A stretch of DNA of 38,185 bases, from assembly GCA_025351145.1 (NCBI GenBank), contig JANXWM010000329.1, positions 1-38,185 of the forward strand, written 5' to 3'. Every line of letters begins with the position of its first letter. The first letter of the stretch is position 1. Below are positions 4,094 through 37,944 of the stretch, piece after piece. Under the pieces are notes generated by a model. It worked only from the letters and a program-made list of their open reading frames with translations. It had not been told where the DNA came from and did not search any database. The position numbers were made by a program, and so were the translations under genes. The DNA comes from Chitinophagaceae bacterium. Lineage in GTDB: Bacteria; Bacteroidota; Bacteroidia; Chitinophagales; Chitinophagaceae.

Positions 4094-4149
4094 GTACAAG
4101 AGTGCGACGCAACGGATGCTCAATTGGAATACATGGGCTGGGTACATAA
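4094..4149 (+). repeat. Dispersed element copy 2
   Basis: Exact core at 4094-4112, 24-nt spacer, GCTGGGTACATAA tail; upstream CGCTTCGGTAAAAGCT box. Confidence 0.9.
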
Positions 4150-4180
4150 TGATTAGTTTACGGCTTAACCTTTTGCTTGC

Positions 4181-4188
4181 TACATTTG
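4181..4188 (+). promoter_or_regulatory. -7 promoter element for ubiX
   Basis: TACATTTG, 22 bp upstream of the ATG. Confidence 0.6.
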
Positions 4189-4210
4189 TTTACATATAAA
4201 TATTTATACA

Positions 4211-4780
4211 ATGACAAATAAAATTGCAGTCGCAATAACCGGGGCAAGCGGTTCCATTTATGCAAAACTGCTGATTGAGAAATTGCTTACGCTGAAGGAT
4301 CAATGGGAGGAGCTGAGTTTGGTAATGAGCAATAACGCAAAGGAAGTTTGGCATACCGAACTGGGAAATGAAGATTACAAAAATTATCCTGTAAGATATT
4401 TTGACAAGCATGATTTTTCTGCTCCTTTTGCATCAGGTTCTGCAAAATATAATATAATGATCGTAGCTCCCTGCAGCATGGGCACACTGGGCAGGATTGC
4501 CGGTGGTATAAGCGACGACCTTGTAACACGTGCTGCCGATGTAATACTGAAAGAAAGAAGAAAACTGATACTGATGGTGAGGGATACGCCTTACAACCTT
4601 ATTCATATAAGAAACATGGAAACTGTAACGCTTGCCGGCGGTATTATTTGCCCTGCTACCCCATCTTTCTATAATAAACCACAAACAATTGAAGCGGTTG
4701 CCATTACGGTTATAGACCGGGTACTGGATATTGCGGGTTTTCAACTGGATACTTTTCGCTGGGGTACTGACTGCAAATAA
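4211..4780 (+). CDS. ubiX: Flavin prenyltransferase UbiX
   Basis: AITGASGSIY, APFASGS, APCSMGTL, RAADVILKERRKL, PATPSFY. Confidence 0.95.
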   Translation: MTNKIAVAITGASGSIYAKLLIEKLLTLKDQWEELSLVMSNNAKEVWHTELGNEDYKNYPVRYFDKHDFSAPFASGSAKYNIMIVAPCSMGTLGRIAGGISDDLVTRAADVILKERRKLILMVRDTPYNLIHIRNMETVTLAGGIICPATPSFYNKPQTIEAVAITVIDRVLDIAGFQLDTFRWGTDCK

Positions 4781-4809
4781 AAAGGCCCCGTCTTTAGACG
4801 GAGCCTTTT
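4779..4809. terminator. Bidirectional intrinsic terminator between ubiX and rpsA
   Basis: AAAAAGGCCCCGTCT-TT-AGACGGAGCCTTTT hairpin between convergent stops. Confidence 0.8.
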
Positions 4810-4827
4810 ATGGAGTATTTGCAAGAA

Positions 4828-6879
4828 CTATTTTTTATCATCTTCCTGCTGTTGTAGTTTTTCTTTAATTTCTGCAAGTGCGCCTAAATCTCCAAGTGTG
4901 GCTTTTTCAACTTTGCTTTGAACAGCTTTCACTGCTTTCTGCGTTTTGGCAGCTTCAACATTGGCTTCTTTGCGTAAAGCTTCTTTCTCTTCTACTTTAG
5001 CCTGCTCCCAAATTTTACTGTGACTTAAAACAATACGCTTTTCGTTGCGGTCGAATTCTATTACAACGAATTGAGCAGTTTCATCAGCAGTGATGAGTTT
5101 GCCATCTTCTTTTGTAAGGTGACGTGCGGGTGCAAAACCTTCAAGCCCATAAGGCAACTGAACTACAGCGCCTTTATCATCTTTACGGGTAACTGTGCCT
5201 TCGTGTACTGAACCGATAGCAAATGTTTCCTGTAAAGAATTCCATGGATCTTCTTCCAGTTGTTTGTGGCCGAGCTGCAGTTTCCTGTTCTCTTTGTCAA
5301 CACCAAGAATAATGATGTCGATTTTCTCACCAACTTTAGTGTATTCTGAAGGATGGTTGAAACGCTTTAACCAGCTCAGGTCGCTGATATGTATCATACC
5401 GCCGATGCCTGGTTCAAGCTCTACAAACACCCCGTAGTTGGTAATGTTTTTAACCAATCCTGCATGCTTGCTTCCTTCAGGATATTTATTTTCGATAGTG
5501 CTCCATGGATCTTCAGTAAGCTGTTTAATAGAAAGGCTCATTTTGCGTGAGTCTTTATCTAGTGTAACCACCTTAGCTTCATGCTCATCATTTAGTTTAA
5601 AGTATTCTTTCGCGTTGATTGGCGTATTAGCCCATGTAATTTCGCTTACATGTACAAGGCCTTCAACACCTGGCTGAATTTCGAGGAATGCACCATAATC
5701 TTCAATGTTTACTACGCGGCCTTTAACGGTTGCACCTTCTGTAATCCACTCTGGCAATACATCCCATGGATGTGGTGTTAATTGTTTTAAACCAAGACTG
5801 ATGCGTTTTTTATCGTCGTCAAAATCCAACACAACCACCTGTAATTTCTGATCCATCTTAAGCACTTCGCCCGGATGTGAAATACGTCCCCATGAAATAT
5901 CGGTGATGTACAGCAAGCCATCCAAACCTCCAAGGTCCATAAAGGCACCAAAGTCGGTGATGTTTTTTACAGTACCTTCCAATACCTGCCCTTTCTCCAG
6001 CTTGCTCATAATCTCAGCACGCTGAGCTTCGATATCGCTTTCGATAAGGGCTTTATGAGATACAACGGCATTCTTAATGGTCTCGTTGATCTTAACCACT
6101 TTAAATTCCATTGTTTTACCTACGAACTGATCGTAATCTGTAACAGGTTTAACATCGATCTGAGAACCTGGCAAGAATGTTTCCATACCAAATACATCAA
6201 CGATAAGGCCACCTTTGGTTTTGCTTGTAACAACACCAGTAACCACTTCGCCGGTTTTGTGTACTTCCATAATCCTCTGCCATGCGCGGAAAATACGTGC
6301 TGACTTACGGCTGAGGTGCAGGTGACCCTGACGGTCTTCTTTCTCAACAACCATTACCTCAACAGGATCGCCAATTTTTAAATTGGTAAGATCGCGAAAC
6401 TCGTTTAATGAAATAAGGCCATCGCTTTTAAAACCAATGTTGATTACAACATCTGTTTTGGTAAGCGCAACAACCAAACCATTTACAATTTCATTGTCTT
6501 CGATCTGTACAAAAGTGTCATCATACACTTTATCATACTTAGCTTTTTCTTCCGGGGAATAATGAGAAACATTGCGTTTGTCAATAGACCAGTCAAAATC
6601 ATCATGCGCTGCAATTGTTTCTGCAACGGGCTGCTGTGCAATAACAGGCACAGCTTCAGGTTCAATTGCGGCAGCAGTTTCTTCAACTACAGCAGGTGTT
6701 TCAACTTCAACCAATGGTGCAGTTACGGCAACTGCAGGTGCTTCCGCCACTACCAATGGAGCGGCTTCTGCAACAGGTTCGTTTGTTATCGCTGCAGGTA
6801 CTTCTGTAACCGGAGTTTCGGCTACGGGAGCACTCTCCTGTGCATCAGCGTTTGGATTAACAATATTGTTTTCTGACAT
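4828..6879 (-). CDS. rpsA: 30S ribosomal protein S1 with Ala/Pro/Glu/Val-rich N-terminal extension
   Basis: Six S1 repeats (FLPGSQID, TDFGAFMDLGGLDGLLYITDISW, YGAFLEI..GVEGLVHVSE); Bacteroidota-type DFDW and TLGDL motifs. Confidence 0.97.
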   Translation of the reverse strand: MSENNIVNPNADAQESAPVAETPVTEVPAAITNEPVAEAAPLVVAEAPAVAVTAPLVEVETPAVVEETAAAIEPEAVPVIAQQPVAETIAAHDDFDWSIDKRNVSHYSPEEKAKYDKVYDDTFVQIEDNEIVNGLVVALTKTDVVINIGFKSDGLISLNEFRDLTNLKIGDPVEVMVVEKEDRQGHLHLSRKSARIFRAWQRIMEVHKTGEVVTGVVTSKTKGGLIVDVFGMETFLPGSQIDVKPVTDYDQFVGKTMEFKVVKINETIKNAVVSHKALIESDIEAQRAEIMSKLEKGQVLEGTVKNITDFGAFMDLGGLDGLLYITDISWGRISHPGEVLKMDQKLQVVVLDFDDDKKRISLGLKQLTPHPWDVLPEWITEGATVKGRVVNIEDYGAFLEIQPGVEGLVHVSEITWANTPINAKEYFKLNDEHEAKVVTLDKDSRKMSLSIKQLTEDPWSTIENKYPEGSKHAGLVKNITNYGVFVELEPGIGGMIHISDLSWLKRFNHPSEYTKVGEKIDIIILGVDKENRKLQLGHKQLEEDPWNSLQETFAIGSVHEGTVTRKDDKGAVVQLPYGLEGFAPARHLTKEDGKLITADETAQFVVIEFDRNEKRIVLSHSKIWEQAKVEEKEALRKEANVEAAKTQKAVKAVQSKVEKATLGDLGALAEIKEKLQQQEDDKK

Positions 6880-6911
6880 AAATAAATCCCGATGGTTTTA
6901 TTTCGGGGTTG

Positions 6912-6919
6912 CAAAAGTA
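6912..6919 (-). promoter_or_regulatory. -7 promoter element for rpsA
   Basis: TACTTTTG followed by CA on the minus strand, 32 bp upstream of the ATG. Confidence 0.7.
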
Positions 6920-6956
6920 GTGATATATACTGAAAATGCGAAGTTTAAGAAAGGGA

Positions 6957-7016
6957 TTTTCAGGAGCCGGGCAGATGAAACCCTGATTGGGCTTTACTTG
7001 CGTCGCACTCTGGTAC
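6957..7016 (-). repeat. Dispersed element copy 3
   Basis: TTGCGTCGCACTCTGGTAC at 6998-7016, 25-nt spacer, tail GCCCGGCTCCTGAAAA. Confidence 0.9.
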
Positions 7017-7089
7017 TGCGGGATTATGAATCGGCATACCCCGATTGTAAGTTTTGCCGGGTTTTGAAATGTTCAATATTGTTCCGAAC

Positions 7090-7145
7090 GTACAAGAGTG
7101 CGACGCAAGGAACGATCAATAAAGATTAAATGCCGGGTACAAAAA
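7090..7145 (+). repeat. Dispersed element copy 4
   Basis: Exact core at 7090-7108, 23-nt spacer, GCCGGGTACAAAAA. Confidence 0.95.
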
Positions 7146-7164
7146 TTATTATAAAAAACTGGTT

Positions 7165-7593
7165 TTATGAATGAATATAAGAATGCAGGTGCGAAATCGT
7201 TTCCTGCTGGGTTAAGATGGTTTCTGTAACCACATCGTTGATAGAAATTATTCCATTAAGTTTATCGCCGTTCATTACCGGAATATAACGCAGGTTCTTT
7301 GATGACATAAGTTCCATGCAATGTTCAATGGTATCTCTTTCTGTAACTGAAGGAAAGTCGGCTGACATGATTTCGCCTACAGTGGTATCTGTAGACGACC
7401 TGCCTTTTAAAATTACTTTGCGGGAATAATCACGCTCTGTCATTATACCAAGGAATTTTTCGTTTTCGGCCACTACTACAGAACCTATGTTTTGATTTTC
7501 CATTATATGCAATGCATCAATAACTGAAGTGGAAGGCAGAACAGTGGTTACTTTGTTTCCTTTGCGACGCAATACATCAGACACTTTTCTCAT
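7165..7593 (-). CDS. CBS-domain pair protein
   Basis: GIMTERDYSRKV, VGEIMS, GIISINDV; probable start MRKVSD at 7593 rather than 7665. Confidence 0.9.
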   Translation of the reverse strand: MRKVSDVLRRKGNKVTTVLPSTSVIDALHIMENQNIGSVVVAENEKFLGIMTERDYSRKVILKGRSSTDTTVGEIMSADFPSVTERDTIEHCMELMSSKNLRYIPVMNGDKLNGIISINDVVTETILTQQETISHLHSYIHS

Positions 7594-7774
7594 GGTAATA
7601 ATAATTTTTTGGGATGAGAAGTTACGACAATTTATTACACTGACAATACCCTGAAAAAAAAACATGAAAAAGATATTAACTTATTATTATGAGTCGCGCC
7701 TACATGACGGCTTAAACAAAGCTTTTATCCGATAGTCAGAATGATCCTGTAATTAATCTTAAAAAAAAACATTT

Positions 7775-8110
7775 ATGAAAAAGTTATTTTCAATGTTTGC
7801 TGCACTGATTATATTATCAACTGCTGCATTCGCTCAAACTGCAACGCCTCAAACAAAAGCTAAACCCGCTGCAACTACACAGAAGACTCCTGTAGTTAAG
7901 AAAGATGGTACGCCTGACAAACGTTACAAAGAAAACAAGGTGCAACCTGCTGTGAAAACAAAAAAAGATGGTACGCCTGACAAACGCTACAAAGAAAATA
8001 AACCACCGGCAAGTGCTACCAAACCTTCAGCAGGAACACCTGCCAAAGATGCAAAGCAACCGGTTAAAACAAAAAAAACAGAGCCAGCTAAAAAGCCAAA
8101 TGGCAAATAG
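7775..8110 (+). CDS. Small secreted basic Lys/Pro/Thr-rich protein with two KKDGTPDKRYKENK repeats
   Basis: Signal peptide ending AFA-Q; 42-bp repeats at 7898-7939 and 7961-8002. Confidence 0.85.
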   Translation: MKKLFSMFAALIILSTAAFAQTATPQTKAKPAATTQKTPVVKKDGTPDKRYKENKVQPAVKTKKDGTPDKRYKENKPPASATKPSAGTPAKDAKQPVKTKKTEPAKKPNGK

Positions 8111-8122
8111 AAAGAACAACAT

Positions 8123-8149
8123 AAAAAAGGGGCTGATTGCCCCTTTTTT
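8123..8149. terminator. Bidirectional intrinsic terminator
   Basis: AAAAAAGGGGC-TGATT-GCCCCTTTTTT between convergent genes. Confidence 0.85.
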
Positions 8150-8171
8150 ATGTTGCTTAATTTTGTTACAG

Positions 8172-8891
8172 CTATATTTTTTCTATACCACCGCTTCCTG
8201 AAACTTTTGTATCGATCTGTGTTGCATTACCTGTGTATAAAATTCGGCCGCTGCCACTGATATGTGCAGAAATAGCTTTGGTCGCATTTACTTTAATATT
8301 ACCGCTGCCGCTTACTTTAGCAGTCACATTTTCGCAGGGTGCTTTTATACAGTTAATGCGGCCGCTGCCGCTTTGAGAAACGGTAAGGTTTTGTACAATA
8401 TTACCTTCCAGTTCTATTGCGCCGCTGCCGCTCATTCTTATATCTGTTTCGTGAAATTTTGCAAAAGACAAATTAATATTACCTGAGCCAGAAACGTTAA
8501 AATTTGTTTGACCATCGTTTGTAAAACCACCCCGGCCTGTAATAGAACCGCTGCCACTTTGGGCAATACTGTTAATGGTTTTCATACTCACATGTACCTT
8601 CACCGGTACCTCGGGTTTAATGGTTATCATATCCCGTACTTTAATAATCAGCTTTCCGTCTTTTACTTTTGTTTCAATATATGGCAGTATATTATCATCC
8701 GCTTCCACATCTATGCTGTTGCTTTCGCCATAAGAGATATCAACTGAAATGGGTCCTCCGGAAGATATTCCTGTATAACCCGAAGCATCTCTTTGTTCTG
8801 TTTTTGCAGCACCACTGCCTTTAACTACTTTCCATACATCAAAACTTTGCAGGCTGCCGAATAAGCACGCAAACAGTAATAATTTTTTCAT
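8172..8891 (-). CDS. Head GIN domain (DUF2807-like) secreted protein
   Basis: VKGSG...EADDNILPYI.T.V.DGKL and repeated SGSG.I beta-solenoid turns. Confidence 0.9.
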   Translation of the reverse strand: MKKLLLFACLFGSLQSFDVWKVVKGSGAAKTEQRDASGYTGISSGGPISVDISYGESNSIDVEADDNILPYIETKVKDGKLIIKVRDMITIKPEVPVKVHVSMKTINSIAQSGSGSITGRGGFTNDGQTNFNVSGSGNINLSFAKFHETDIRMSGSGAIELEGNIVQNLTVSQSGSGRINCIKAPCENVTAKVSGSGNIKVNATKAISAHISGSGRILYTGNATQIDTKVSGSGGIEKI

Positions 8892-8957
8892 CGTTTGTGT
8901 TTTTGATTTTGATTGGTGAAACGATGCCGGAGAGTGAATGTTACAGTAAGAAAAGAA

Positions 8958-9018
8958 TTTTTTTATGGGCCAGGCAGATGAATTTCATGGCATCGCCTGT
9001 TGCGTCGCACTCTTGTAC
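8958..9018 (-). repeat. Dispersed element copy 5
   Basis: Exact core at 9000-9018, 24-nt spacer, tail GCCTGGCCCATAAAA. Confidence 0.95.
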
Positions 9019-9175
9019 TTTCGGATCATAATTGGGCTATCAACAGCCGGGGACGAGTAGCATTAATGGCAGTAATATTTTTGGCCTATAAATAAATGCA
9101 AACATTACCACAAGCACAATCCTTTCAAAAAACACAGCAGGACTGCATAGGAATTGCCCCGTAGAATTACCGAAC

Positions 9176-9233
9176 GTACAAGAGTGCGACGCAAGAAAAG
9201 CTTTATAGTATTCCCATTGCCCGGCCCAAAAAA
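9176..9233 (+). repeat. Dispersed element copy 6
   Basis: Exact core at 9176-9194, 24-nt spacer, GCCCGGCCCAAAAAA abutting TTA at 9234. Confidence 0.95.
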
Positions 9234-10817
9234 TTATTGTTTATCAATCTCTACAATCGCTGCTACTGCTGCCTTTTGGCCTGCCTGCGTTTTAAAATAA
9301 ATAGTGCCTGTGGAAGTATTGGTGAAGGTTACGCCACTAATGGTATTCTACCTTGTAGCGGCATTTACCGCCTGAGGAAAGCCGCTGCCCCGGTTACTGT
9401 TTACTGCTGCATTTAAACTAAACACGTTCATAGAATCTTTGCTTACTACTACTGCAAGTAAATCTTTATTGCCAATACTGTCGGCCATCATAGTCATACC
9501 ACGGGGGAACAAACGGTAACCCGTAATGCCGCAGTAGGGAGAATATTTTGTGCGGGTTGGGTCATTCTTCATGGGGTAAGGGAAAAGCACGTAACTGCTT
9601 CCGTCGGTTTCCATGCCCAGCACATATACATAACATTCGCTGCTGTTTTTTACTTCCATTTTAAATTGAGTGCCCTTTATAATAGCAGTGCTTGTTTGAA
9701 AAGTGTTGCCTGCCTTTAAACGCATCGGAATATATTGTTTGGTTTTATTCTCAACCAAACCAATACTGCATTCAAGGTTTTGAGCGGCAGCGCTCCCCTT
9801 TTTAGGCATTGGGTTTAGGCCATAAGCTTCGCGTACAAAATGTTTAAAATCGTTGTAGCGAATAAAGGCTACACCATTTTGCCCCCATTGATTGCCCCAG
9901 CTATTGAGTATTTGAAATGCGCCACCTTCTTTGCGGTCGTCGTATCCAATTACGCACATGGCGTGACCGCCGAAACCCATCATATTATAATCTTCGTCAG
10001 TCGGATGCCACACAGATTGCTCCATCATATCCTGCATAAAACTGCCGCCAACCATCATGCCTATTACTACGGGAACATCTTTGGCAAGATGCTCTTTAAT
10101 GGCATACAGGTCAATATTATTTACATTATCTCCGTCAGTTAATCTGGTAAAGCCAAGCATGCGGAATTGCGATGCTTCCTGCTTTAGATTACCCGATGGC
10201 TGGGTACTGCAATCCTGGTCGTTGTATGGAAAGTCGTTATAAGGTATGGCACCCACTTTGGTCATGGTTTCCATAGCACGTATAATGTAACTGCCCTGGC
10301 AACCATCAAGGCCAATCTGGTTGTATAAAAATGAAGGGCTAAACTTTACCTGGTCTGGATCTACGCCCGATATTGTTGATTCCAAAATGGTTCTTGCACC
10401 GTAAGCGCTGCTCCACGCTACGCAGCTTCCCTGCTGCCCCTGGTCGCCGGGGCTGGGTGCGAATTTAAGCAGTGACACTGCTTCAGGCAGGTTGTTTTTG
10501 CTTTCATCGGTTGCTTCATATATCTGCGCTTTATCAAATTGTTTTGGGTCGAGTATGCCTCCGGTTGCCAGTTGAGAAGCCTGCTGTGTTAAGCCTGTGC
10601 AACCTCCTTTAAAGTAAAGAAAACCGCCCACAATGAGTACCAGCACCAAACCTACGGGGTTCTTTATCAAACCAAACAGCAAAGGCAGCAAACCGAAGAT
10701 GCCACCGCCTCCGCCTCCACCCGGGAAACGGTCACCGCCGCTGCCATTGCCATTATTATTATTATTTCCGCTGTTATCAAAGCGGTCATTGGGGTCGTCA
10801 ACCATTCTTATAGGCAT
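9234..10817 (-). CDS. Membrane-anchored papain-like (C1) cysteine peptidase with C-terminal beta domain; in-frame TAG at 9348-9350
   Basis: DQGQQGSCVAW (Cys), GGHAMCVIGY (His), ILNSWG (Asn); N-terminal hydrophobic segment; frame continues 37 codons past the TAG to TAA at 9234-9236. Confidence 0.9.
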
Positions 10818-10872
10818 GATGTATCATTTTTTTCTGGCACTAATTTAGAATAATCGTGAATGTATTAAGAAG

Positions 10873-10928
10873 TTTTTTAACCAGGCATAAGACTATAAAG
10901 CGGCTTTACTTGCGTCGCACTCTTTTAC
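10873..10928 (-). repeat. Dispersed element copy 7
   Basis: TTGCGTCGCACTCTTTTAC at 10910-10928, 23-nt spacer, tail GCCTGGTTAAAAAA. Confidence 0.9.
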
Positions 10929-11026
10929 TCAATAACTTATTGAGCAAAAAAGCAGCCTTTGTGCCTTTTAAAAATAAATTTTTATGGCATTGAAATTTTG
11001 GGAGTTAGCTGATATATGTTCCAAAT

Positions 11027-11082
11027 GTACAAGAGTGCGACGCAAGTAAAGCCTGATAGCGTTCAAAATATCTGGCTAAAAA
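11027..11082 (+). repeat. Dispersed element copy 8
   Basis: Exact core at 11027-11045, 24-nt spacer, ATCTGGCTAAAAA. Confidence 0.9.
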
Positions 11083-11423
11083 TATCTGCCAAAACATTCA
11101 TTAGCAAAGATTAATAATTGTCAATTTTTATTATGCTTTATATTTTTTCGTCTTCACCCTGGCTGCTTTTTCTAAAAAATCAACTATGCCGGGCAGCAAT
11201 AAAACAAAACCCAAAACGCAGGCTTAACTATTCTTTTATCCAAATTGCGCCAAACTTGAAAAAAAATCATATTTTTATTTTCTTGAACAAAAAAAAATTA
11301 AAACACCTTCCTATGACCTTAACTACATTTAACCCAGAAAACGCCACATTCAAAAAGCGGGTTCGTTTAATTAGCCGTTTCTTGATAACAGGAAATAACA
11401 TATCACTATTTAATAAAATATCC

Positions 11424-12878
11424 ATGAAAAATCCTACATTAATCAAAGCATTTACCGCTTCTGCTATGTTTATCTTAACTGGTTCTTTGGCTTCGGCGCA
11501 ATGCAGTAATTTCAAGCTCAATAACAGCAGTAATCCTTTAAAAGGATTTTCAGTTTCTTCTGGTCTGGAAAGCCGTCCTTTTTTCATTGATATCGACGGA
11601 GACGGTGACCTGGATTGCTTTAGCGGCGAATACAACATCAATATAAAAGATCAATCAAAAATTTATTTTTTCAGGAACGAGGGAACAAATGCCCATCCAT
11701 CTTTTAAGAAAATTAATGGGGTCGGCAACCCTCTTGATAAAGTATCTATTCCTGTACTCACCATTCCTTACTTTATAGATATTGATGCAGACGGTGATTA
11801 TGATTGTTTCATTGGCGATGGTACCAGCGGTGCCATAAGGTATTATAAAAATGTGGGAACTGCAACAAATCCCTCATTTGAAAAACAATCTGCTGCAATG
11901 AATCCATTGAGTATGGTAAAACTCTCGGCGCAATCCATGGCCGAACCAGCATTTGCGGATATTGATGGCGATGGCGATATTGATTGCCTGGTAACTGATT
12001 TATATGGTGATGAATACTATTATAAAAATACCGGAACTGCGAAACAACCTCTTTTCGAGCATGTAACAGGAAAGGATAACCCATTTGAGTTTTTAAAAGA
12101 AATGGAAAGCAATGGATCATCTTTTTACGACTGGAACCATGATGGTTTACAGGATCTTTTCATGGGAACGGAGTATTATAAAAATATTGGAACCAAAACT
12201 GAACCCGCTTTTGAGAAAAATGAATCTGAGGGACCAAATTTTTCTTCCGGCTCATTTCTTTTACCGGTACGGTGGGTAATATTGGGCAGCAAAAGTTCAA
12301 TTTGCGCCATTACCGGAACAGCCGCAGGTACGTTTAATTTTCACACTACTGCTCCCGAAGTTTCTATTACACCAAAAGACAAGCAAACTATAGCTGCAGG
12401 AAGTTCTGTTACCCTGCATATTTCACCTGAAATTACCGGGTACACTTACCAATGGGTAAAAGATGGCAAAGCGCTTAAAGGTGCTACCGCAAACCAGCTT
12501 ACTGTAAACAAACCCGGCAATTACAGCCTTGAGGTTAACGGAAGTTGCGGAAACGTATCTACCAACACAACTTATATAAATACAAGGGGTACTTCTATTG
12601 ATGCCGCCGTTTCTGAAAGTGTTACCGCAGAAAATCCATTGTTGCAGGTTCAGGCATATCCCAATCCTGCAAAAGATGAATTTATTGTAAGTCTTCCTGC
12701 GGGTTTAAGCAATGCTTCAACTATCCGCATCGTTAACCTGCTGGGCAAAATTATGCAGACACAAAAAGTAAACAGCGGTGTTTTAAAGTTTGGAAAAGAA
12801 TTATCAGCCGGTATTTATTTTATGCAGATTATAGATGCTGATAAACTAATTTACCAGCAAAAATTAATAAAAGAATAG
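11424..12878 (+). CDS. T9SS-secreted protein with FG-GAP/VCBS-like repeats, Ig-like domain and type A sorting domain
   Basis: DIDGDGDLD-type repeats with Y.N.GT...P.F; YTYQWVKDG; C-terminal YPNPA...GIYF...KLIKE; signal peptide from MKNPTL at 11424. Confidence 0.9.
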   Translation: MKNPTLIKAFTASAMFILTGSLASAQCSNFKLNNSSNPLKGFSVSSGLESRPFFIDIDGDGDLDCFSGEYNINIKDQSKIYFFRNEGTNAHPSFKKINGVGNPLDKVSIPVLTIPYFIDIDADGDYDCFIGDGTSGAIRYYKNVGTATNPSFEKQSAAMNPLSMVKLSAQSMAEPAFADIDGDGDIDCLVTDLYGDEYYYKNTGTAKQPLFEHVTGKDNPFEFLKEMESNGSSFYDWNHDGLQDLFMGTEYYKNIGTKTEPAFEKNESEGPNFSSGSFLLPVRWVILGSKSSICAITGTAAGTFNFHTTAPEVSITPKDKQTIAAGSSVTLHISPEITGYTYQWVKDGKALKGATANQLTVNKPGNYSLEVNGSCGNVSTNTTYINTRGTSIDAAVSESVTAENPLLQVQAYPNPAKDEFIVSLPAGLSNASTIRIVNLLGKIMQTQKVNSGVLKFGKELSAGIYFMQIIDADKLIYQQKLIKE

Positions 12879-12893
12879 TAAGTTATTTAAGAT

Positions 12894-12924
12894 AAAAAAG
12901 CTCCATTATTGATGGAGCTTTTTT
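12894..12924. terminator. Bidirectional intrinsic terminator
   Basis: AAAAAAGCTCCAT-TATTG-ATGGAGCTTTTTT. Confidence 0.85.
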
Positions 12925-12925
12925 A

Positions 12926-12985
12926 TTTGGTACCAGGCAAAAAGCCGGAATACTATTAAGTTTTACTTGCGTCGCACTCTTGTAC
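12926..12985 (-). repeat. Dispersed element copy 9
   Basis: Exact core at 12967-12985, 28-nt spacer, tail GCCTGGTACCAAA. Confidence 0.9.
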
Positions 12986-13029
12986 TGCATATCTTTATTG
13001 TACTTCAGGCCGTGTATGCAAATTCGTTT

Positions 13030-14181
13030 TTAAACAAGCAGTTCATTGAAAGCCGCGGGCAAAAAAACAGCCGCGGGCACACTGCCCATAATCTTTAATT
13101 CTTCGCTAAAATTTGTTTCATTGTCTAAAAACTTCAGCACACGCAGCGGCGGGTTTTTTTTAAAGAGTTGTTCAAATATTTTATCGCCACCCATTTTTTT
13201 CTGTTGAAGAATATTAAGTAAAACACTGTCGTATAAACCAAACCTTCTTTGCGAAAAAGATTGTGCAATATGCGGATTATTATTATTTACCAGCGCATTG
13301 CTTATTGCGTCCGCCTGCTTTTGTATAAACTGAAAAGTAAAGCCGCTGCTTGCTTTTGTTTGCCCACCTGCAGTGCCAATATTTATGATATTGCCGTAAG
13401 CTTTTGAGAATGAATAATCCGTCATCGGTATTACACCGAATTCTTCTTCAGCAACAGCGTAATTCCTGATTTCTAAATATGTTTCAATGTATTGCTTCAG
13501 GGCTTCATCGTACTCATGCGGCTGCAACAATTTTTCTGTAAAGAGTGTATATTCTACCAGCGCTATATTTGGTGATACGGGCAGCATATAAGCAAATGTG
13601 GTTCCGTGGTTTTGGCTCACCCGGAAATCCATAAAAGTCGCAACATGTTCATTAAAAACATTGGTGGGTGTTTCTATTAACCAGCCTTTAAAATGCTGCA
13701 GTAAATTGTATTTTCCTTTGGGTTCATTTAAAACATCGTAAAATAAAATGCTGTTGAAAATGTAACCGGCTTCAAACTGCTGATCACCGGCTTTTACAAT
13801 AGGTTTATTGTTTTCAGCGGTTAATGATTGAACCTTGCCATAATAAAAATGAATATTTGATTTTTGTTTTGCTTTTTCTAAAACGCAGTTATAAAAATCA
13901 ATCCCCCGGATCATTTTATACTCGTAAGGTTCAAGATCGAACCTTGCTAAGTAACCGGTTGAATAAAAATCAATCTGCTTCCATCGGTGATGAACAATTT
14001 CTTCAAATACGCCGGCCTGCTGTTCCCAAAAGCACCAGGTTCTGTCGTTGTTGTTTTTGGGCGACTGATCAATAACCAATATTTGCTTATCAATAAAGAA
14101 AGGATGCTGTATCATGCGGTAGAGCAGGCTTAAGCCTGCGCATCCTGCACCCGTGATGATATAGTCGTAATGATTGGTCAA
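13030..14181 (-). CDS. crtY: Lycopene beta-cyclase
   Basis: YDYIITGAGCAGLSL, NDRTWCFW, FMDFR, ALVEYT, EFGVIPM, IGTAGGQTKASSG; the first 24 codons of the tracked ORF lie in repeat DNA, so the start is probably TTG at 14181. Confidence 0.88.
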   Translation of the reverse strand: MTNHYDYIITGAGCAGLSLLYRMIQHPFFIDKQILVIDQSPKNNNDRTWCFWEQQAGVFEEIVHHRWKQIDFYSTGYLARFDLEPYEYKMIRGIDFYNCVLEKAKQKSNIHFYYGKVQSLTAENNKPIVKAGDQQFEAGYIFNSILFYDVLNEPKGKYNLLQHFKGWLIETPTNVFNEHVATFMDFRVSQNHGTTFAYMLPVSPNIALVEYTLFTEKLLQPHEYDEALKQYIETYLEIRNYAVAEEEFGVIPMTDYSFSKAYGNIINIGTAGGQTKASSGFTFQFIQKQADAISNALVNNNNPHIAQSFSQRRFGLYDSVLLNILQQKKMGGDKIFEQLFKKNPPLRVLKFLDNETNFSEELKIMGSVPAAVFLPAAFNELLV

Positions 14182-14219
14182 TAGTGTGTGGCTGTTGAAA
14201 GCTGAATCAATATCTGAAC

Positions 14220-14273
14220 GTACAAGTGTGCGACGCAAGGAACGATCAATCAATGAACTTCTGTTGGGTTAAA
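14220..14273 (+). repeat. Dispersed element copy 10 (overlaps the crtZ 3' end)
   Basis: GTACAAGTGTGCGACGCAA at 14220-14238, 24-nt spacer, GTTGGGTTAAA. Confidence 0.9.
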
Positions 14274-14750
14274 GGTATTGTTCTTAATTGCCTCATCACG
14301 TTTTATTTTGTCCCAATATTTTTTTGCAATGATGAGCATACCAAAACTTTCGCCGTCTTCTTTTTCTAAATGTTTGTGATGCATTTTATGCGCCCAGCGA
14401 ATGGCATTTACATAGCGGCTGCTGCTTTTAGCAAACAGTTTAAAACGTTGATGAATGATAATTTCGTGCACCAGAAAATAAGCAAACCCATATAGGGCAA
14501 TACCGGCACCAATGCTTACAGAAATACAGTTTTGGTACATGCTGCCCAGCATAATACAAAGCCAGCTTGGTATGGCAAAAATGAGGAAAAATGCATCGTT
14601 TTTTTCGAAGAAACCTTTGGCGGGTTTATGATGATCTTCGTGCAGGTACCAGAGAAAACCATGCATTACATATTTATGTGTAAACCATGTAATGGGTTCC
14701 ATTAAAACGAACACAGCAATTGCAATAAAAATATAAATAATGAGGCTCAT
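14250..14750 (-). CDS. crtZ: Beta-carotene hydroxylase
   Basis: HKYVMHG, HEDHH, FEKND, HEIIIHQR and HKMHH histidine boxes. Confidence 0.93.
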   Translation of the reverse strand: MSLIIYIFIAIAVFVLMEPITWFTHKYVMHGFLWYLHEDHHKPAKGFFEKNDAFFLIFAIPSWLCIMLGSMYQNCISVSIGAGIALYGFAYFLVHEIIIHQRFKLFAKSSSRYVNAIRWAHKMHHKHLEKEDGESFGMLIIAKKYWDKIKRDEAIKNNTFNPTEVH

Positions 14751-15436
14751 AAAAATGTTTGAAGCACGAGGAAAAACAATAACTGTATAATAAACAAATG
14801 TACTGCGAATTGGTTGTGTTTATCGAATTTCATAAAGCGGAAAACTGTTAATAGCGTCGCGCTGATGATGAACCAGCAGAGATAATTGTACAAGGGTATT
14901 TCGCCATTGGGCAGCCATTGCCAGAAACCAAGCTGCTGCGCCGCAGGCTCCATTATCCAGTCGAAAAAAGTAGCGAGCATAGCGGCATCTATAACAAAAG
15001 AAAACAGCTTTACATAATTGGAAGGCTGGTTATTTGCTTCCAGTTTTCTATACACCCATTCACTTACTCCATTTGTAATTGTGCCTGCGCAAAACATAAT
15101 TACAAACCAATTAATGCCGATCACTAAAGGCACAGCAAAAATTTTATTTCCAAGAACATCGCCGTAACGGTAGTTACCAAAAAGATAGCCGGTATTAACG
15201 CCAATAATTTCGGTAAGCATGCCTGTTGCAAAACATAAAATTATAAAGCCATAAAAAGCAATATTTTTTTCCCGTTGAGTGAACAGCAGCAAAGCCGCCA
15301 TGAGTAAGAGGTTGAGCGGCGTATTGCTGATAAACCATGCTTTATACGGCGTAAACAAAATACCAATTACACCGCTTACATGAAACAGCAGCGCAATAAA
15401 TAAAGCAATATTTGTTTTTTGTTTATAAGAGATCAC
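14747..15436 (-). CDS. cruF: Carotenoid biosynthesis membrane protein, CruF-like 1,2-hydratase
   Basis: EIIGVNTG.LFGNY.Y...LG.KI..VPL.IG.NW, D..MEP.A..LGFW.W, PLYNY..WF; location in the crt cluster. Confidence 0.8.
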   Translation of the reverse strand: MISYKQKTNIALFIALLFHVSGVIGILFTPYKAWFISNTPLNLLLMAALLLFTQREKNIAFYGFIILCFATGMLTEIIGVNTGYLFGNYRYGDVLGNKIFAVPLVIGINWFVIMFCAGTITNGVSEWVYRKLEANNQPSNYVKLFSFVIDAAMLATFFDWIMEPAAQQLGFWQWLPNGEIPLYNYLCWFIISATLLTVFRFMKFDKHNQFAVHLFIIQLLFFLVLQTFL

Positions 15437-15456
15437 TCGTTGTTAATTGGTAATGA

Positions 15457-15514
15457 TTTTTTGTACCGGGCAGCATTACTACTATTTGGCTTCTGTTGCG
15501 TCGCACCCTTGTAC
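15457..15514 (-). repeat. Dispersed element copy 11
   Basis: TTGCGTCGCACCCTTGTAC at 15496-15514, 24-nt spacer, tail GCCCGGTACAAAAAA. Confidence 0.95.
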
Positions 15515-15573
15515 TGCAGTAATACCGTGGAGCAATAAACAGCCAGCTTTCCGTCCGGTTAATGTAAAACAGT

Positions 15574-17058
15574 TTACTCAAAATCCTCTGCCACTATTTC
15601 ACTCAAAATTTTTGCACTTTTTAAACACAACGGAATACCACCACCAGGATGCACGCTGCCCCCTGCAAAGTACAACCCTTTTATTTGTTTACTAAAATTG
15701 GGGTGCCGCAGAAATGCCGCCATTTTTGAATTGGAACTGCTGCCATACAGGGAACCCATATAAGAAGATGTTTTTTCTTCGATCATAATAGGGGCAAGTA
15801 CTTGTTCCGTTTCTATTAATGGCTCAATATCAGTTTTTAAAATACGGTTGAGTTTATTAATTATATTTTTTCGGCATTGCTGGTTGTACAAATCCCAGTC
15901 CTGGCCAATATTGGCTGGTGCATTTACCATTACAAACCAGTTCTCTTTTCCAGCAGGAGCCTGGATGCCCGGCTCACATTTACTCGTGATATTGATGTAA
16001 ACAGTAGGGTCGCTAAATAGTTTTTTGTACTTGAACAAATGATCAAATTCTGCCTTATAATTTTCACTGAAAAAAATGTTGTGCAATTCCAGTTGTGGAA
16101 ATTCCGCGGACATACCCCAGTAGAAAACCATGGCACTACTGCTGCGTTCCTGCTTTAATATTTGTCTTGATTTTATTTCATCGTTTAATAAATATTTATA
16201 AGTGCCATAAACATCCATATTGCTTACCACAATATCAGCATCTATGTTTTGGTGACCCGCAACAATGCCTTTTATTTTTCCCTGGTTTTCAATAATTCTT
16301 TGTACAGGCTGATTAAAATTAAACTGCACCCCCATTTTTAAAGCCAATTGATATAGTGCATTAGTAATGCTGATCATACCGCCTTTGGGATAAAAAATTC
16401 CTTCGTTGTATTCAAGATGGGGAATAAGGCAAAGCATACCCGGAGCTTTATAAGGATTGCTGCCATTGTAAGTAGCATACCGGTTGAACAACTGAACAGT
16501 ATGTGGATTTTTAAAGTAAGAACTGTTAACCTGGTTCATACTTTTAAAAAGGTATTTCCATTTAACAGAGCTGATTGCTTTTTTAAGCGGAGCCTTAAAA
16601 AGTGATCTTAATTTATGCAATGAGTAATTAAGAAATACCCTGCCAATATTGTTGTATAATTTTTCTGAATGCTGCAGATATTGCTTTAGATTATTTTTAT
16701 CTTCTTCCAGCTTATCAGACAGTTCTTCAGCGAATTTTTCTGAATCGCCATAAGCATTAATTATGGCACCATCTTCATAAAAATACTTACATGCAATTGA
16801 TACAGGTGTATAGTGAAAATAATCATTGATGTTTTCACCAGCCAGTTCAAAAAGTTCTTCAATATTGTATGGCTGTGTAAACAGGCTCGGGCCAGCATCG
16901 AAATGAAAGCCTTCTTTTTCAAAGTGGCTTAACTTACCGCCAGGATACTCATTTTTTTCAAACACTGTTACTTGCAAACCCTGCACCGCAAGCCGTATTG
17001 CACTGGCAAGGCCAGCAACGCCACTTCCTGTAACTATTGCGTGTAAAGGAGTTTTCAT
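15574..17058 (-). CDS. crtD: 1-hydroxycarotenoid 3,4-desaturase
   Basis: GSGVAGL, FDAGPSLFT, RYATYNGSNPY, LYGSSSN...AFLRHPN, GGSVHPGGGIPLCL. Confidence 0.85.
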   Translation of the reverse strand: MKTPLHAIVTGSGVAGLASAIRLAVQGLQVTVFEKNEYPGGKLSHFEKEGFHFDAGPSLFTQPYNIEELFELAGENINDYFHYTPVSIACKYFYEDGAIINAYGDSEKFAEELSDKLEEDKNNLKQYLQHSEKLYNNIGRVFLNYSLHKLRSLFKAPLKKAISSVKWKYLFKSMNQVNSSYFKNPHTVQLFNRYATYNGSNPYKAPGMLCLIPHLEYNEGIFYPKGGMISITNALYQLALKMGVQFNFNQPVQRIIENQGKIKGIVAGHQNIDADIVVSNMDVYGTYKYLLNDEIKSRQILKQERSSSAMVFYWGMSAEFPQLELHNIFFSENYKAEFDHLFKYKKLFSDPTVYINITSKCEPGIQAPAGKENWFVMVNAPANIGQDWDLYNQQCRKNIINKLNRILKTDIEPLIETEQVLAPIMIEEKTSSYMGSLYGSSSNSKMAAFLRHPNFSKQIKGLYFAGGSVHPGGGIPLCLKSAKILSEIVAEDFE

Positions 17059-17095
17059 AACCGTTTGGTAAAAGCTGAAAGTTAGTTACAAATGA

Positions 17096-17715: not shown

Positions 17716-17773
17716 GTACAAGAGTGCGACGCAAGTAAAGCTTCATAGATATTCTTTGCCCGGTAAAAAAAAA
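17716..17773 (+). repeat. Dispersed element copy 12
   Basis: Exact core at 17716-17734, 23-nt spacer, GCCCGGTAAAAAAAAA ending 1 nt from the crtB stop. Confidence 0.95.
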
Positions 17774-17774
17774 T

Positions 17775-18611: not shown

Positions 18612-18668
18612 TTTTTGTTACCAGCTTTTAGTTCTTTGGTCATCGCCTCTTGTGTCACTCACTTGTAC
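18612..18668 (-). repeat. Dispersed element copy 13 (diverged core)
   Basis: TTGTGTCACTCACTTGTAC at 18650-18668, 24-nt spacer, tail GCTGGTAACAAAAA running into the crtB ATG. Confidence 0.8.
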
Positions 18669-21059: not shown

Positions 21060-21116
21060 GTACAAGTGTGCGACGCAAGAGGCGATGCCCAATGTTATGA
21101 AAGCCGGGTAAATAAA
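21060..21116 (+). repeat. Dispersed element copy 14
   Basis: GTACAAGTGTGCGACGCAA at 21060-21078, 24-nt spacer, GCCGGGTAAATAAA. Confidence 0.93.
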
Positions 21117-22136: not shown

Positions 22137-22192
22137 TTTTTTTACCGGGCAATAAATCCACACTCATCGTTCCTTGCGTCGCACTCTTGTAC
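22137..22192 (-). repeat. Dispersed element copy 15
   Basis: Exact core at 22174-22192, 23-nt spacer, tail GCCCGGTAAAAAAA. Confidence 0.95.
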
Positions 22193-23276: not shown

Positions 23277-23334
23277 TGAAAGGATTGCGACGCAACAGGC
23301 GATGCCATGAAATACTACAGCCGGTATTACAAAA
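23277..23334 (+). repeat. Dispersed element copy 16 (5' core diverged)
   Basis: TTGCGACGCAACAGGCGATGCC, 24-nt spacer, GCCGGTATTACAAAA; upstream CGCTTCGGTAAAAGCT identical to 4063-4078. Confidence 0.85.
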
Positions 23335-25401: not shown

Positions 25402-25461
25402 TTTTTTTTGACCCGGGCAGCAGAATATCTATTCACCGTTCCTTGCGTCGCACTCTTGTAC
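25402..25461 (-). repeat. Dispersed element copy 17
   Basis: Exact core at 25443-25461, 24-nt spacer, tail GCCCGGGTCAAAAAAAA. Confidence 0.95.
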
Positions 25462-25955: not shown

Positions 25956-26013
25956 TTTTTTTGAGCCAAACAACGGTTATTTGGGCATCGTTCCTTGCGT
26001 CGCACACTTGTAC
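25956..26013 (-). repeat. Dispersed element copy 18
   Basis: TTGCGTCGCACACTTGTAC at 25995-26013, 23-nt spacer, tail GTTTGGCTCAAAAAAA. Confidence 0.9.
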
Positions 26014-28299: not shown

Positions 28300-28357
28300 G
28301 TACAAGAGTGCGACGCAAGGATGCTTAATACTTATTCCGATGCCCGGTCCCAAAAAA
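28300..28357 (+). repeat. Dispersed element copy 19
   Basis: Exact core at 28300-28318, 23-nt spacer, GCCCGGTCCCAAAAAA abutting the TGA at 28358-28360. Confidence 0.95.
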
Positions 28358-32261: not shown

Positions 32262-32321
32262 TTTTTTATGAGCCGGCCAGAAGGTTCTTTGTGGATCGGC
32301 TGTTGCGTCGCACTCTTGTAC
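32262..32321 (-). repeat. Dispersed element copy 20
   Basis: Exact core at 32303-32321, 24-nt spacer, tail GGCCGGCTCATAAAAAA. Confidence 0.95.
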
Positions 32322-33330: not shown

Positions 33331-33512
33331 TAGATTTACGGGCTTGAGGTTTATATTATTAATTGCTTAAAAATAATCAAATAGAAAAACTCTATAAGAT
33401 ATATTCCTTGCACCAATGACACAGCAATAATATTGTCGCCATTGTTAGAGTTACCTCCAATAACTTTTACTTTAATCTTTGCTCCAATAAAAGCCCAATA
33501 TATAATCCAACC

Positions 33513-33571
33513 GCCGCAGTGTGCGACGCAAGTAAAGCTTCATTCATATTCTCTCAGCCTGGTACAAAAAA
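33513..33571 (+). repeat. Dispersed element copy 21 (variant subfamily)
   Basis: GCCGCAGTGTGCGACGCAA, 25-nt spacer, GCCTGGTACAAAAAA abutting the TAA at 33572-33574. Confidence 0.9.
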
Positions 33572-34520: not shown

Positions 34521-34547
34521 AGATGCCGAAATAAATTCGGCATGACG
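34521..34547 (-). repeat. CGTC-type REP-like palindrome
   Basis: Minus strand CGTC-ATGCCGAA-TTTAT-TTCGGCAT-CT. Confidence 0.7.
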
Positions 34548-34610
34548 GCTTACTGGCTTATTGTTCGCTTTAATCTACGCTGCGATAAAAGCTCAATATA
34601 CAATCCAACC

Positions 34611-34669
34611 GCTGCAGAGTGCGACGCAAGTAAAGCTTTATACATTTCAAAAGCTGGGCTCAAAAAAAA
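34611..34669 (+). repeat. Dispersed element copy 22 (variant subfamily)
   Basis: GCTGCAGAGTGCGACGCAA, 23-nt spacer, GCTGGGCTCAAAAAAAA. Confidence 0.9.
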
Positions 34670-36799: not shown

Positions 36800-37624
36800 A
36801 TGATAAAAATTATCGCCTGCTTCCTGGTATTGCAGTTAACCTTTACCCATGTTATCGCACAAAACAAAACTGTTGATTACGGCAACAATCCATCGGCAGG
36901 AAAATATTATAACATACGTGGTTTTAAAATGTATTGCGAAGTATATGGCAGCGGCAAACCGCTCCTCCTGATTCATGGCAATGGCGGCAACATCAGTGCG
37001 TTCAAAAACAATATTTCTTATTTCGCAAAAAAATATAAAGTAATTGCTGTTGACAGCCGTGCCCACGGCAAATCAACAGACAACAGTGATTCATTAAGTT
37101 TCGAAATGATGGCAGATGATTTTGCTGCTTTACTCACTGCCATGCACATTGATTCGGCTTATGTTATCGGCTGGAGCGATGGCGGTATCAATGCTTTGCT
37201 GCTCGCCATGCGCCACCCTGAAAAAGTAATAAAGCTTGCTTCAACCGGTGCAAATTTGTGGCCCGATTCTACGGCGCTCATCCCTTCGTTGTGGAAAGAC
37301 GAAAAAAGAAATTTTGATGAGCATGCAAATAAACCTTTCGGTAAGGCGAAAGAAAAAAACGACTGGAAAATATTTATGCTCGACTGGCTGCAGCCCAACA
37401 TTCCATTATCGCAACTGCATTCCATACAATGTCCTTCACTGATCATCAGCGGCGATCACGATTTAATTACGTTAGAGCATACCGTGCAAATTTACCAGAA
37501 CATTCCCCATGCGTATTTATGGATATTGCCCAACTCAAGCCACGGAACATTGATAGACCATAAAGATGATTTCAATAAAAAAGTGGATGATTTTTTTACA
37601 ATGCCTTTTCATAGCTGGAACTAG
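36800..37624 (+). CDS. Secreted alpha/beta hydrolase
   Basis: LLIHGNGG, DSRAHGKS, GWSDGG, GDHD, SH. Confidence 0.92.
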   Translation: MIKIIACFLVLQLTFTHVIAQNKTVDYGNNPSAGKYYNIRGFKMYCEVYGSGKPLLLIHGNGGNISAFKNNISYFAKKYKVIAVDSRAHGKSTDNSDSLSFEMMADDFAALLTAMHIDSAYVIGWSDGGINALLLAMRHPEKVIKLASTGANLWPDSTALIPSLWKDEKRNFDEHANKPFGKAKEKNDWKIFMLDWLQPNIPLSQLHSIQCPSLIISGDHDLITLEHTVQIYQNIPHAYLWILPNSSHGTLIDHKDDFNKKVDDFFTMPFHSWN

Positions 37625-37628
37625 AATA

Positions 37629-37687
37629 TTTTGAGCCAGGCAAAAGAAGTTTTTCATGGCATCGTCCCTTGCGTCGCACTCTTGTGC
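37629..37687 (-). repeat. Dispersed element copy 23
   Basis: TTGCGTCGCACTCTTGTGC at 37669-37687, 27-nt spacer, tail GCCTGGCTCAAAA. Confidence 0.9.
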
Positions 37688-37735
37688 TGAGGTAATTCTA
37701 CCGATCACACGAAGATGATCTAAGCGTGTAGCTTT

Positions 37736-37789
37736 GGCTAAAGCCCGAACATCACGCAAGTTTTAAACCCAAGGCATAAACCTTGGGTT
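37736..37789. repeat. Half copy of the CTAAAG-loop palindromic family
   Basis: GGCTAAAGCCCGAA (same as 28127-28140) followed by hairpin AACCCAAGG-CATAAA-CCTTGGGTT. Confidence 0.55.
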
Positions 37790-37886
37790 AAAAAAAACAA
37801 ACCAACAGGCATAAACCAAAGTGCCGGCTGCAATAAATTTTTTACGCAAATAACGTTGTTGCACATTGCTCATTAATGTTCCGAAC

Positions 37887-37944
37887 GTACAAGAGTGCGA
37901 CGCAACTAAAGCTTCATAGAAATGCTTCTGCCCGGTACAAAAAA
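37887..37944 (+). repeat. Dispersed element copy 24
   Basis: Exact core at 37887-37905, 24-nt spacer, GCCCGGTACAAAAAA abutting the TAA at 37945-37947. Confidence 0.95.

Follow-up and report, generated by a model that had tools for sequence, protein, structure and literature searches.

Same-strand copies of a polar intergenic repeat exclude each other over about 2 kb in a Chitinophagaceae genome

A 38,185-nucleotide stretch of DNA from a Chitinophagaceae bacterium (contig JANXWM010000329.1 of assembly GCA_025351145.1; hereafter the window) carries 24 copies, counting one degenerate copy at 3105(+), of an intergenic repeat of about 90 bp whose orientation tends to switch from one copy to the next. 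Following this element through the whole genome, we found that the alternation arises from the mutual exclusion of same-strand copies within about 2 kb of each other; it is a short-range rule, not a long-range pattern. We measured the kilobase-scale distance law and the recombination footprints of this repeat family. The explanation that we favor, to which we assign a probability of about 0.4, is that the core of the element is a strand-exchange site and that close direct pairs of cores are purged by short-range excision. The genome of the window (G000) is assembled at 5.39 Mb in 799 contigs, of which the window is the longest, and is 94% complete; we compared it with three congeners (G001, G002 and G003) and two relatives in which the element is sparse (G005 and G008).

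The element and its catalogue

The element consists of an invariant, polar 20-bp core, GTACAAG(A/T)GTGCGACGCAA(G/C), with a variable arm on each side. The left arm is weakly conserved from about -30 to 0 relative to the core and the right arm, also weakly, to about +58, with a terminal GCYNGG and a run of A; this right end often adjoins a stop codon. Within the core is a 9-bp dyad with a single base at its center, and folding of 150 copies with DNA parameters, compared with shuffled sequences, gave no stem-loop (median z of -0.22 for one strand and -0.12 for the other). Two core variants account for most copies in G000, P (2,113) and V (193), which differ by three linked changes and are joined by 16 intermediates; a further variant, H, has a different 5' head.

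Three scans yielded a G000 catalogue of 2,860 copies, 1,435 on the plus and 1,425 on the minus strand, and about 76 further copies have interrupted cores (a few overlap the catalogue); some of the counts below rest on a first catalogue of 2,640 copies. The position weight matrix scan gave no hits in the reversed genome at the threshold used. In the first catalogue, 2,637 of 2,640 cores lay outside and 3 inside the 4,389 genes found by a hexamer gene caller.

Same-strand copies exclude each other at short range

Genome-wide, 1,806 of 2,123 pairs of neighbors in the 2,860-copy catalogue were inverted relative to each other. An initial annotation of the window had argued that neither close doublets nor transcription direction explains the alternation, and our results bear this out on both counts. 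When we considered only pairs in which neither copy had a partner within 300 bp, orientation was still far from random, with 601 of 695 pairs inverted (p=3e-91), contrary to the random orientation after collapse of doublets that the annotation had named as its refutation, and when the flanking and intervening genes all lay on one strand, 193 of 233 pairs were inverted against an expected fraction of 0.49 (2,640-copy catalogue). Gene direction alone predicted the orientation of 56% of 1,349 single copies, a figure that rose to 81% when the neighboring copies were added. Across one gene shorter than 1.5 kb, inverted pairs made up 126 of 133 cases in a co-directional context and 169 of 185 in a mixed one.

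The exclusion depends on distance. For pairs of single copies, the same-strand share in successive 300-bp bins from 300 to 2,700 bp was 0.02, 0.01, 0.11, 0.11, 0.21, 0.32, 0.36 and 0.51, and it stayed level at about 0.5 beyond 2.4 kb when all such pairs were counted. The fitted midpoint of the depletion was 1.74 kb (bootstrap 1.63-1.86 kb, an interval that is too narrow because pairs are not independent), and a logistic model with gene direction as a covariate gave the same decay. The proposal that the chromosome is partitioned into segments bounded by facing sites does not stand, as the orientation correlation is gone by about 2.4 kb. Back-to-back pairs peaked near 117 bp and showed no depletion further out, and facing pairs were depleted under about 0.8-1 kb; across genes shorter than 500 bp, the observed/expected ratio was 0.04 for same-strand, 0.15 for facing and 0.92 for back-to-back pairs, and pairs closer than 300 bp comprised 587 back-to-back, 36 facing and 7 tandem cases. 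Genes shorter than 800 bp were never flanked by two doublets (0 versus 13.4 expected), in comparison to 15 versus 15.3 expected for genes of 1.5-2 kb, which indicates that distance counts and not neighbor rank. At short range, doublets also avoided all other copies, which is what a rule based on strand and distance alone would predict. A strict module model, in which [+ gene -] units undergo random loss, was ruled out by the short genes that are never flanked by two doublets. A dependence on replication strand was likewise rejected: skew gave a hint (46 versus 22 same-strand pairs at 1.5-2.2 kb, 15 versus 10 below), G003 leaned the opposite way, and the contig-skew proxy failed its gene-strand check.

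The exclusion is independent of shared exact sequence, since pairs sharing fewer than 10 exact bases were excluded as strongly as those sharing at least 19 (same-strand in 15 of 67 and 33 of 184 cases, respectively), and it is independent of core variant. As intergenic 12-mer repeats outside the family were mostly direct at 0.3-1.8 kb (97 direct versus 39 inverted), we conclude that the rule is specific to this family, other G000 repeat families being too sparse for a family-level control. These results bear on the idea that RecA-independent slippage between direct 20-bp repeats, falling with distance, purged close same-strand pairs with no special enzyme. Such slippage has precedent, as its proximity dependence is established in Escherichia coli and Bacillus subtilis and tied to Okazaki-fragment length in the accessible text of PMC4627823; it would affect both strands alike, as we observed, and because cores are rewritten over time their present identity may differ from their past identity. 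It does not, however, predict equal exclusion at low shared identity or an excess of direct pairs among unrelated repeats, and it cannot tell facing from back-to-back pairs, making it improbable as the cause. Thus, where the initial annotation had listed purging of direct repeats by deletion, the generic version is weakened and a family-specific version is retained as the best reading.

Distribution of the element and the rule in other genomes

A relaxed core pattern matched in 14 of 24 genomes of the family (1 to 2,256 matches) and in none of 16 from other families of the order. Named database records that hold a doublet were mostly from Chitinophagaceae or Chitinophagales, with the remainder labelled Bacteroidetes, Bacteroidia or Sphingobacteriales, and at least one cultured carrier, Limnovirga soli, is known. 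Viral contigs carry the core too: 23 of them have it at a total of 38 loci, where it can point either way relative to genes, and in several phage contigs (loci L053, L054, L080 and L087) a copy directly follows an integrase-like gene.

Repeating the orientation analysis in related genomes, as the initial annotation had proposed, showed that the rule holds in four of them. In G001, of which 1.17 Mb was analyzed, 13 of 106 neighbors at 0.3-1.5 kb lay on the same strand, and in the 0.8 Mb analyzed of G003 the count was 4 of 47; past 3 kb the share rose to about half or somewhat less in both. The sparse genomes G005 and G008 together had no same-strand cases among 23 neighbors at 0.3-3 kb, compared with 21 of 43 at greater distances. 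At named loci of other Chitinophagaceae and similar records, 5 of 50 neighbors at 0.3-2 kb were on the same strand (49 of 56 loci, all chosen for holding a doublet; the other 7 were excluded as overlaps or possible duplicates). These genomes and loci are kin and not independent of one another. As the named loci include an isolate and multi-megabase contigs, the rule is not caused by assembly.

Arms, core variants and inserts

Arms reassort freely across the core. Among 2,310 copies, mutual information reached up to 0.7 bit within an arm and 0-0.02 across the core, and the linkage of 8-mers had p=0.21 across the core versus 1e-47 and 1e-57 within the arms; register shifts inflate the within-arm values but would not mask a linkage of arm types. 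Partners in doublets were less alike than random pairs, with right arms that were mostly unlike (258 versus 156), and back-to-back pairs 0.3-1.5 kb apart were slightly more alike than random (left arm 0.426 versus 0.382, right arm 0.475 versus 0.445). Doublet spacers, for example on G000 contig C222, contain short motifs repeated in runs, along with further hairpin families.

We also observed differences in core variant at orthologous sites. Of 94 orthologous pairs between G001 and G000, 12 combined a V core in G001 with a P core in G000, the opposite combination being absent, and a further 8 differed by the H head. These differences suggest templated rewriting of the core, for which compensatory change in the dyad would be an alternative.

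Foreign hairpins were found inside the core at positions 10-15 in 93 cases, in comparison to 4 in the reversed control. About ten gene-less inserts of 150-170 bp have the left arm and core head duplicated around a hairpin doublet. At about 4782-5400 of contig C570, a small GIY-YIG (Ssn-like) gene with its own hairpins forms a cassette within one core, again with a duplicated left arm, and at 7078-7640 of contig C79 a similar gene with its own hairpin repeats fills a back-to-back pair. The inserts resemble Ssn cassettes that use the element as a target. In G000, copies with interrupted cores escape the spacing rule (same-strand in 15 of 37 cases versus 110 of 602; p=0.002).

The arms bear on a second alternative, in which copies spread by a mobilizing enzyme meet target immunity: a resident copy would block same-orientation arrivals, and facing ones more weakly, for 1-2 kb. 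The range of the rule, which is fixed in dense and sparse genomes alike, fits this proposal, as do the absence of clear core damage in surviving close direct pairs and the single gains or losses among 267 kept orthologous gaps, of which 22 were single-versus-empty and 11 doublet-versus-single differences. Nevertheless, we found no transposase link and no target-site signature, and copying of the element as a single unit is hard to reconcile with arms that show no linkage across the core. We know of no strand-specific immunity with a range of 1-2 kb, and we consider this alternative unlikely.

Stability and rearrangement around copies

Copies are stable in position and orientation between congeners. 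In three congeners, the carotenoid cluster of the window has its genes in the same order and all detected copies in the same orientation, and when 1.57 Mb of G001 was compared to G000, 46 of 48 orthologous single copies had the same orientation and local inversions affected 1 of 366 informative adjacencies. These data speak against the invertible segments that the initial annotation had listed among its explanations. Inversion, or copying of the element inverted beside its parent, would account for the 85% of neighbors that are inverted, and the slight likeness of back-to-back pairs at 0.3-1.5 kb leans toward inverted copying. Inversion, however, preserves alternation but cannot create a distance-limited rule; inverted copying is at odds with doublet partners that are less alike than random, which leaves the annotation's copy-placed-inverted mechanism weak, and repeated local copying would yield same-strand granddaughters that are missing. 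Both versions are already largely refuted, and we regard them as very improbable.

The initial annotation had also proposed a synteny comparison for breakpoints at copies, and breaks were more frequent at gaps with an element (69 of 168) than at empty gaps of at least 80 bp (14 of 87; odds ratio 3.6, p=4e-5). The difference persisted in tandem gaps alone (32 of 106 versus 8 of 59; p=0.02). At breaks, the right arm stays with its gene (31 versus 14). Orthologues were found for 24 of 48 genes between back-to-back copies versus 55 of 71 between facing copies (p=0.003), and genes between back-to-back copies had lower coding scores, which together indicate that back-to-back junctions collect accessory genes. 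A search for a founder gene between back-to-back copies found only ABC ATPases and similar genes to recur.

Persistence of this kind is what would be expected if each copy were a polar site at which a nucleoid protein, a translocase or a loop-forming complex binds or loads, with a territory of about 2 kb extending from the tail side of the copy. Another same-direction copy within range would be redundant or interfering and would decay (loop anchors, which the annotation had raised, are included here), and the shuffling of arms would come from ordinary RecA exchange between the 2,900 repeats. This proposal accounts for the polarity seen across genes shorter than 500 bp, for the persistence of the orthologous singles, for an exclusion that is independent of shared sequence and for the carriage of the element by phage contigs, as well as for the conservation of orthologous cores, which are 78-95% identical when 4-fold sites are 50% identical. 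Against it, the element was not found in 10 of the 24 family genomes or in the 16 from other families, and its copy number ranges from 1 to 2,457 between carriers, both of which are odd for a core chromosome function; in addition, no binding protein was identified and the capture of hairpins at the dyad is not predicted. We view a polar site as somewhat unlikely.

A possible strand-exchange site at the core

In the explanation that we favor, the core would be recognized by a putative host enzyme that excises the DNA between two close direct cores, with strand exchange probably taking place within the core. Close direct pairs would vanish, being either lost with the intervening gene or selected against as lethal excision, and inverted neighbors would not be excisable and so would persist, as for modules flanked by pdif sites. 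Exchange between distant copies would swap arms and reorder genes. In favor of this reading are the distance law and its independence of gene direction and of shared exact sequence, the reassortment of arms, the differing core variants at orthologous sites, the excess of synteny breaks at copies, two hybrid copies in G001, the foreign hairpins inside the core and, in G000, the escape of interrupted copies from the rule. The range of about 2 kb would then reflect how close two cores must lie to interact, as set for instance by the extent of a single-stranded gap or of a supercoiled loop; excision of integron cassettes fell for cassettes of at least 1,500 bp under some conditions in the accessible text of PMC5371416. 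A broader proposal, which is possible but doubtful, is enzyme-driven gene shuffling across the genome, in which short-range direct excision among thousands of polar sites of no known family would impose an antiferromagnet-like spacing, and rarer long-range exchange would reorder genes and admit accessory genes at back-to-back junctions, in hosts and phages.

Several observations weigh against excision at the core. Gaps with an element lie more often between transcription units, which could by itself raise the rate of breaks; the left arm, in contrast to the right, does not stay with its gene at breaks (24 versus 22); and of 40 breakpoints located at the DNA level at single copies, just 2 fell within the core (in those 2, the G001 copy is a hybrid of two G000 copies on different contigs, and both alignments overlap the core). 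Among 28 gene indels, none was a clean loss between two direct copies, with one that may include such a loss, and no deletion or inversion allele appeared among the listed contig joints of sequencing runs, which were uninformative, with short sides of up to 35 letters. Surviving close direct pairs showed no clear enrichment for damaged cores, and copies with interrupted cores do not escape the rule in G001 (same-strand in 3 of 20 cases versus 36 of 189). The hairpin inserts, being Ssn-cassette-like, may reflect targeting by an Ssn nuclease and not cutting by an enzyme of the element. Excision does not account for the shortage of facing pairs below 0.8 kb, which better fits both a polar site and target immunity. 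Finally, in two stretches of G003 where GC skew is negative almost throughout, the pairs 0.3-1.5 kb apart comprised 4 plus-plus, 0 minus-minus and 26 inverted cases, so both strands are excluded within one skew sign and a lagging-strand-only version fails.

The search for an enzyme belongs with these points, since none was found in G000. The three Y1 genes of this genome have their own repeats, and such genes are likewise present in 5 of the 10 family genomes without the element; Y1 matches were present in 14 of 14 carriers, four of them weak, and the one of the three Y1 proteins that we searched across relatives does not track the element. The three genes (L001, L002 and L003; IS200/RAYT-like) each stand with distinct palindromic repeats unrelated to the element. 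An IS91-type transposase had no match in G000 in a search whose control matched nowhere either, four tyrosine recombinase matches were found in G000, and a comparison of phage loci with the G000 proteome gave no candidate enzyme among the matches listed.

Comparison with known repeat systems

The initial annotation considered the element a candidate for an undescribed system, and this judgment appears right: we found no description in the open-access literature, in which the core sequence did not appear, Chitinophagaceae were not paired with REP sequences and no kilobase-scale rule was given for such repeats, and on the features examined the element does not qualify as REP/RAYT, pdif, attC or SRM. 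At the gathering score, Rfam gave no matches in the window; 17 weak matches in 6800-13200 were all below it.

REP, BIME and REPIN-RAYT families resemble the element in having hundreds to thousands of intergenic copies with a patchy distribution across genera (accessible text of PMC3733652, PMC6006769 and PMC2817692), and in these descriptions inverted dimers are common and tandem ones rare, partners are often unlike and many copies lie just after stop codons. We confirmed the intergenic location, high copy number and inverted doublets for the element. It lacks, however, the stem-loop of 5-13 bp per unit, having only its 9-bp dyad with a 1-bp center, and it lacks the GTAG/GTGG or CGTC tag at a hairpin foot, since its core starts with GTAC and no hairpin follows (GTAG or GTGG occurs near the core, on either strand, in 12% of copies). 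No RAYT gene is closely flanked by the element in the 94% complete G000, where the three Y1 genes adjoin other repeats and the nearest element copies are 0.2-2 kb away, one of them degenerate. BIME alternation spans tens of bases, in contrast to a rule that crosses whole genes to about 2 kb. The rarity of tandem dimers in REP surveys, as given in the available part of PMC3733652, may be a short-range form of the same rule; papers on REP, BOX and dRS3 families describe, in their accessible passages, only dimers under about 150 bp.

The element appears to work most like the modules bounded by pdif sites, with a length limit like that of some attC pairs. On Acinetobacter plasmids, alternating asymmetric pdif/dif sites bound gene modules, single modules between inverted sites are not excisable and crossovers occur within the site, according to the accessible text of PMC13141974, and other mobile elements target pdif sites in that of PMC10132070, as hairpin cassettes do the core of the element. 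Unlike pdif, the element has no 11-6-11 XerC/XerD layout (the best placement gave 3.9/11 matches, with spacers of 5-8 bp), it is spread chromosome-wide around housekeeping genes, its alternation fades with distance and inversions, described as common between pdif sites, are nearly absent (1 of 366 adjacencies). An excision limit near 1.5 kb was measured for some direct attC pairs in the accessible part of PMC5371416; attC sites are, however, described as folded bottom-strand hairpins in direct arrays beside intI, and the element has no hairpin and avoids direct neighbors. Ssn/SRM repeats are abundant, intergenic and tied to DNA cutting in the text available from PMC11893778, and the Ssn-like cassettes on C570 and C79 lie in or between element copies. 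The published SRM motif, in contrast, had 5 hits in G000 and none overlapping the 2,860 cores, and the Ssn-like genes come with hairpins of their own.

DNA uptake sequences of Neisseriaceae and Pasteurellaceae have about 2,000 copies with a conserved core and weaker flanks, and also occur in coding regions. Their copy number and their pattern of core and flanks are like those of the element, unlike which they are not confined to the space between genes (3 of the 2,640 cores in called genes).

A sharp, strand-specific spacing law of about 2 kb that governs thousands of chromosomal sites gives the genome a built-in physical length scale, and it points either to an undescribed recombination enzyme or to an undescribed polar chromosome-organizing site. 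The same pair-correlation test can be applied to the REP, BOX and dRS3 families, and if these obeyed the same law it would bear on how such repeats spread and persist.

Copies and genes of the window

The copies of the window are listed in Table 1. All 16 core positions and strands reported in the initial annotation were correct (its position 23285 is where the variant core at 23277 starts to match), its doublet gaps of 73, 157, 98 and 199 bp agree with the coordinates, and we reproduced its 20 alternating pairs among 23 (binomial p=5e-4). The alternating run of 16 copies is the longest in the genome and sits on the longest contig, so the window is a favorable example. Several inverted neighbor pairs (for example 17728-18669, 21063-22191 and 22165-23302) were spanned in their assembled form by unitigs from four runs of one study; no RNA run was listed among those carrying the sequence.

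Table 1. Element copies in the window (positions of the core).
Feature	Position	Strand	Remarks
Degenerate core, 5' part lost	3105..3123	+	same-strand exception, 989 bp from 4094
Core	4094..4112	+	whole element about 4064-4153
Core, back-to-back doublet with 7090	6998..7016	-	
Core, doublet partner of 6998	7090..7108	+	
Core, doublet with 9176	9000..9018	-	
Core, doublet partner of 9000	9176..9194	+	
Core, doublet with 11027	10910..10928	-	
Core, doublet partner of 10910	11027..11045	+	
Single core after lycopene cyclase gene	12967..12985	-	orientation kept in G002
Single core	14220..14238	+	orientation kept in G001, G002, G003
Single core, cruF-like / crtD intergenic	15496..15514	-	orientation kept in G001, G003
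Single core, idi / phytoene synthase intergenic	17716..17734	+	orientation kept in G001, G002, G003
Single core, V variant	18650..18668	-	orientation kept in G001, G002
Single core, ECF sigma / CarH-like intergenic	21060..21078	+	orientation kept in G003
Single core	22174..22192	-	orientation kept in G001, G002
Single core of the H variant, with a differing 5' head and a perfect 11-bp dyad	23277..23295	+	
Core; rare intact same-strand pair with 25995, 552 bp apart, around 68-aa gene	25443..25461	-	
Core, same-strand exception partner of 25443	25995..26013	-	
Single core	28300..28318	+	
Single core	32303..32321	-	
Core, altered head; same-strand pair with 34611	33513..33531	+	
Core, altered head; same-strand pair with 33513	34611..34629	+	
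Core, doublet with 37887	37669..37687	-	
Core, doublet partner of 37669	37887..37905	+	element end near 37946

Two same-strand pairs deserve comment. The 68-aa gene (25655-25861) that lies inside the 552-bp pair has no Pfam match and is 97% identical in G001, where one of the two enclosing copies was detected. The copies at 33470-33547 and 34568-34645 share the same altered head and are 87% alike over 78 bp, and local duplication is the likely origin of the pair; at 34538-34548, near the second copy, lies a hairpin repeat of the type associated with Ssn.

The genes that separate copies in the window are ordinary and include rpsA, ubiX, mfd and the carotenoid cluster, and some of the window's proteins carry type IX secretion tails. 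The carotenoid cluster (13030-25375), which is conserved in the three congeners, includes an ECF sigma factor, a CarH-like B12-binding regulator and a photolyase-related gene. G001 has a doublet at the position of the window's lycopene cyclase gene, and the cyclase gene matches another contig. A restriction-modification cluster at 190-2918, with an EcoO109I-type endonuclease, an HNH protein and a DNA methylase, contains no element copies; its HNH protein has weak similarity to phosphorothioate-binding endonucleases. The second-longest contig of G000, C83 (33.5 kb, 36% GC), is almost element-free, with one headless copy, and is likely recently acquired DNA. Within a small lipoprotein gene, the window holds two 41-bp repeats that are 93% alike (7898-8001).

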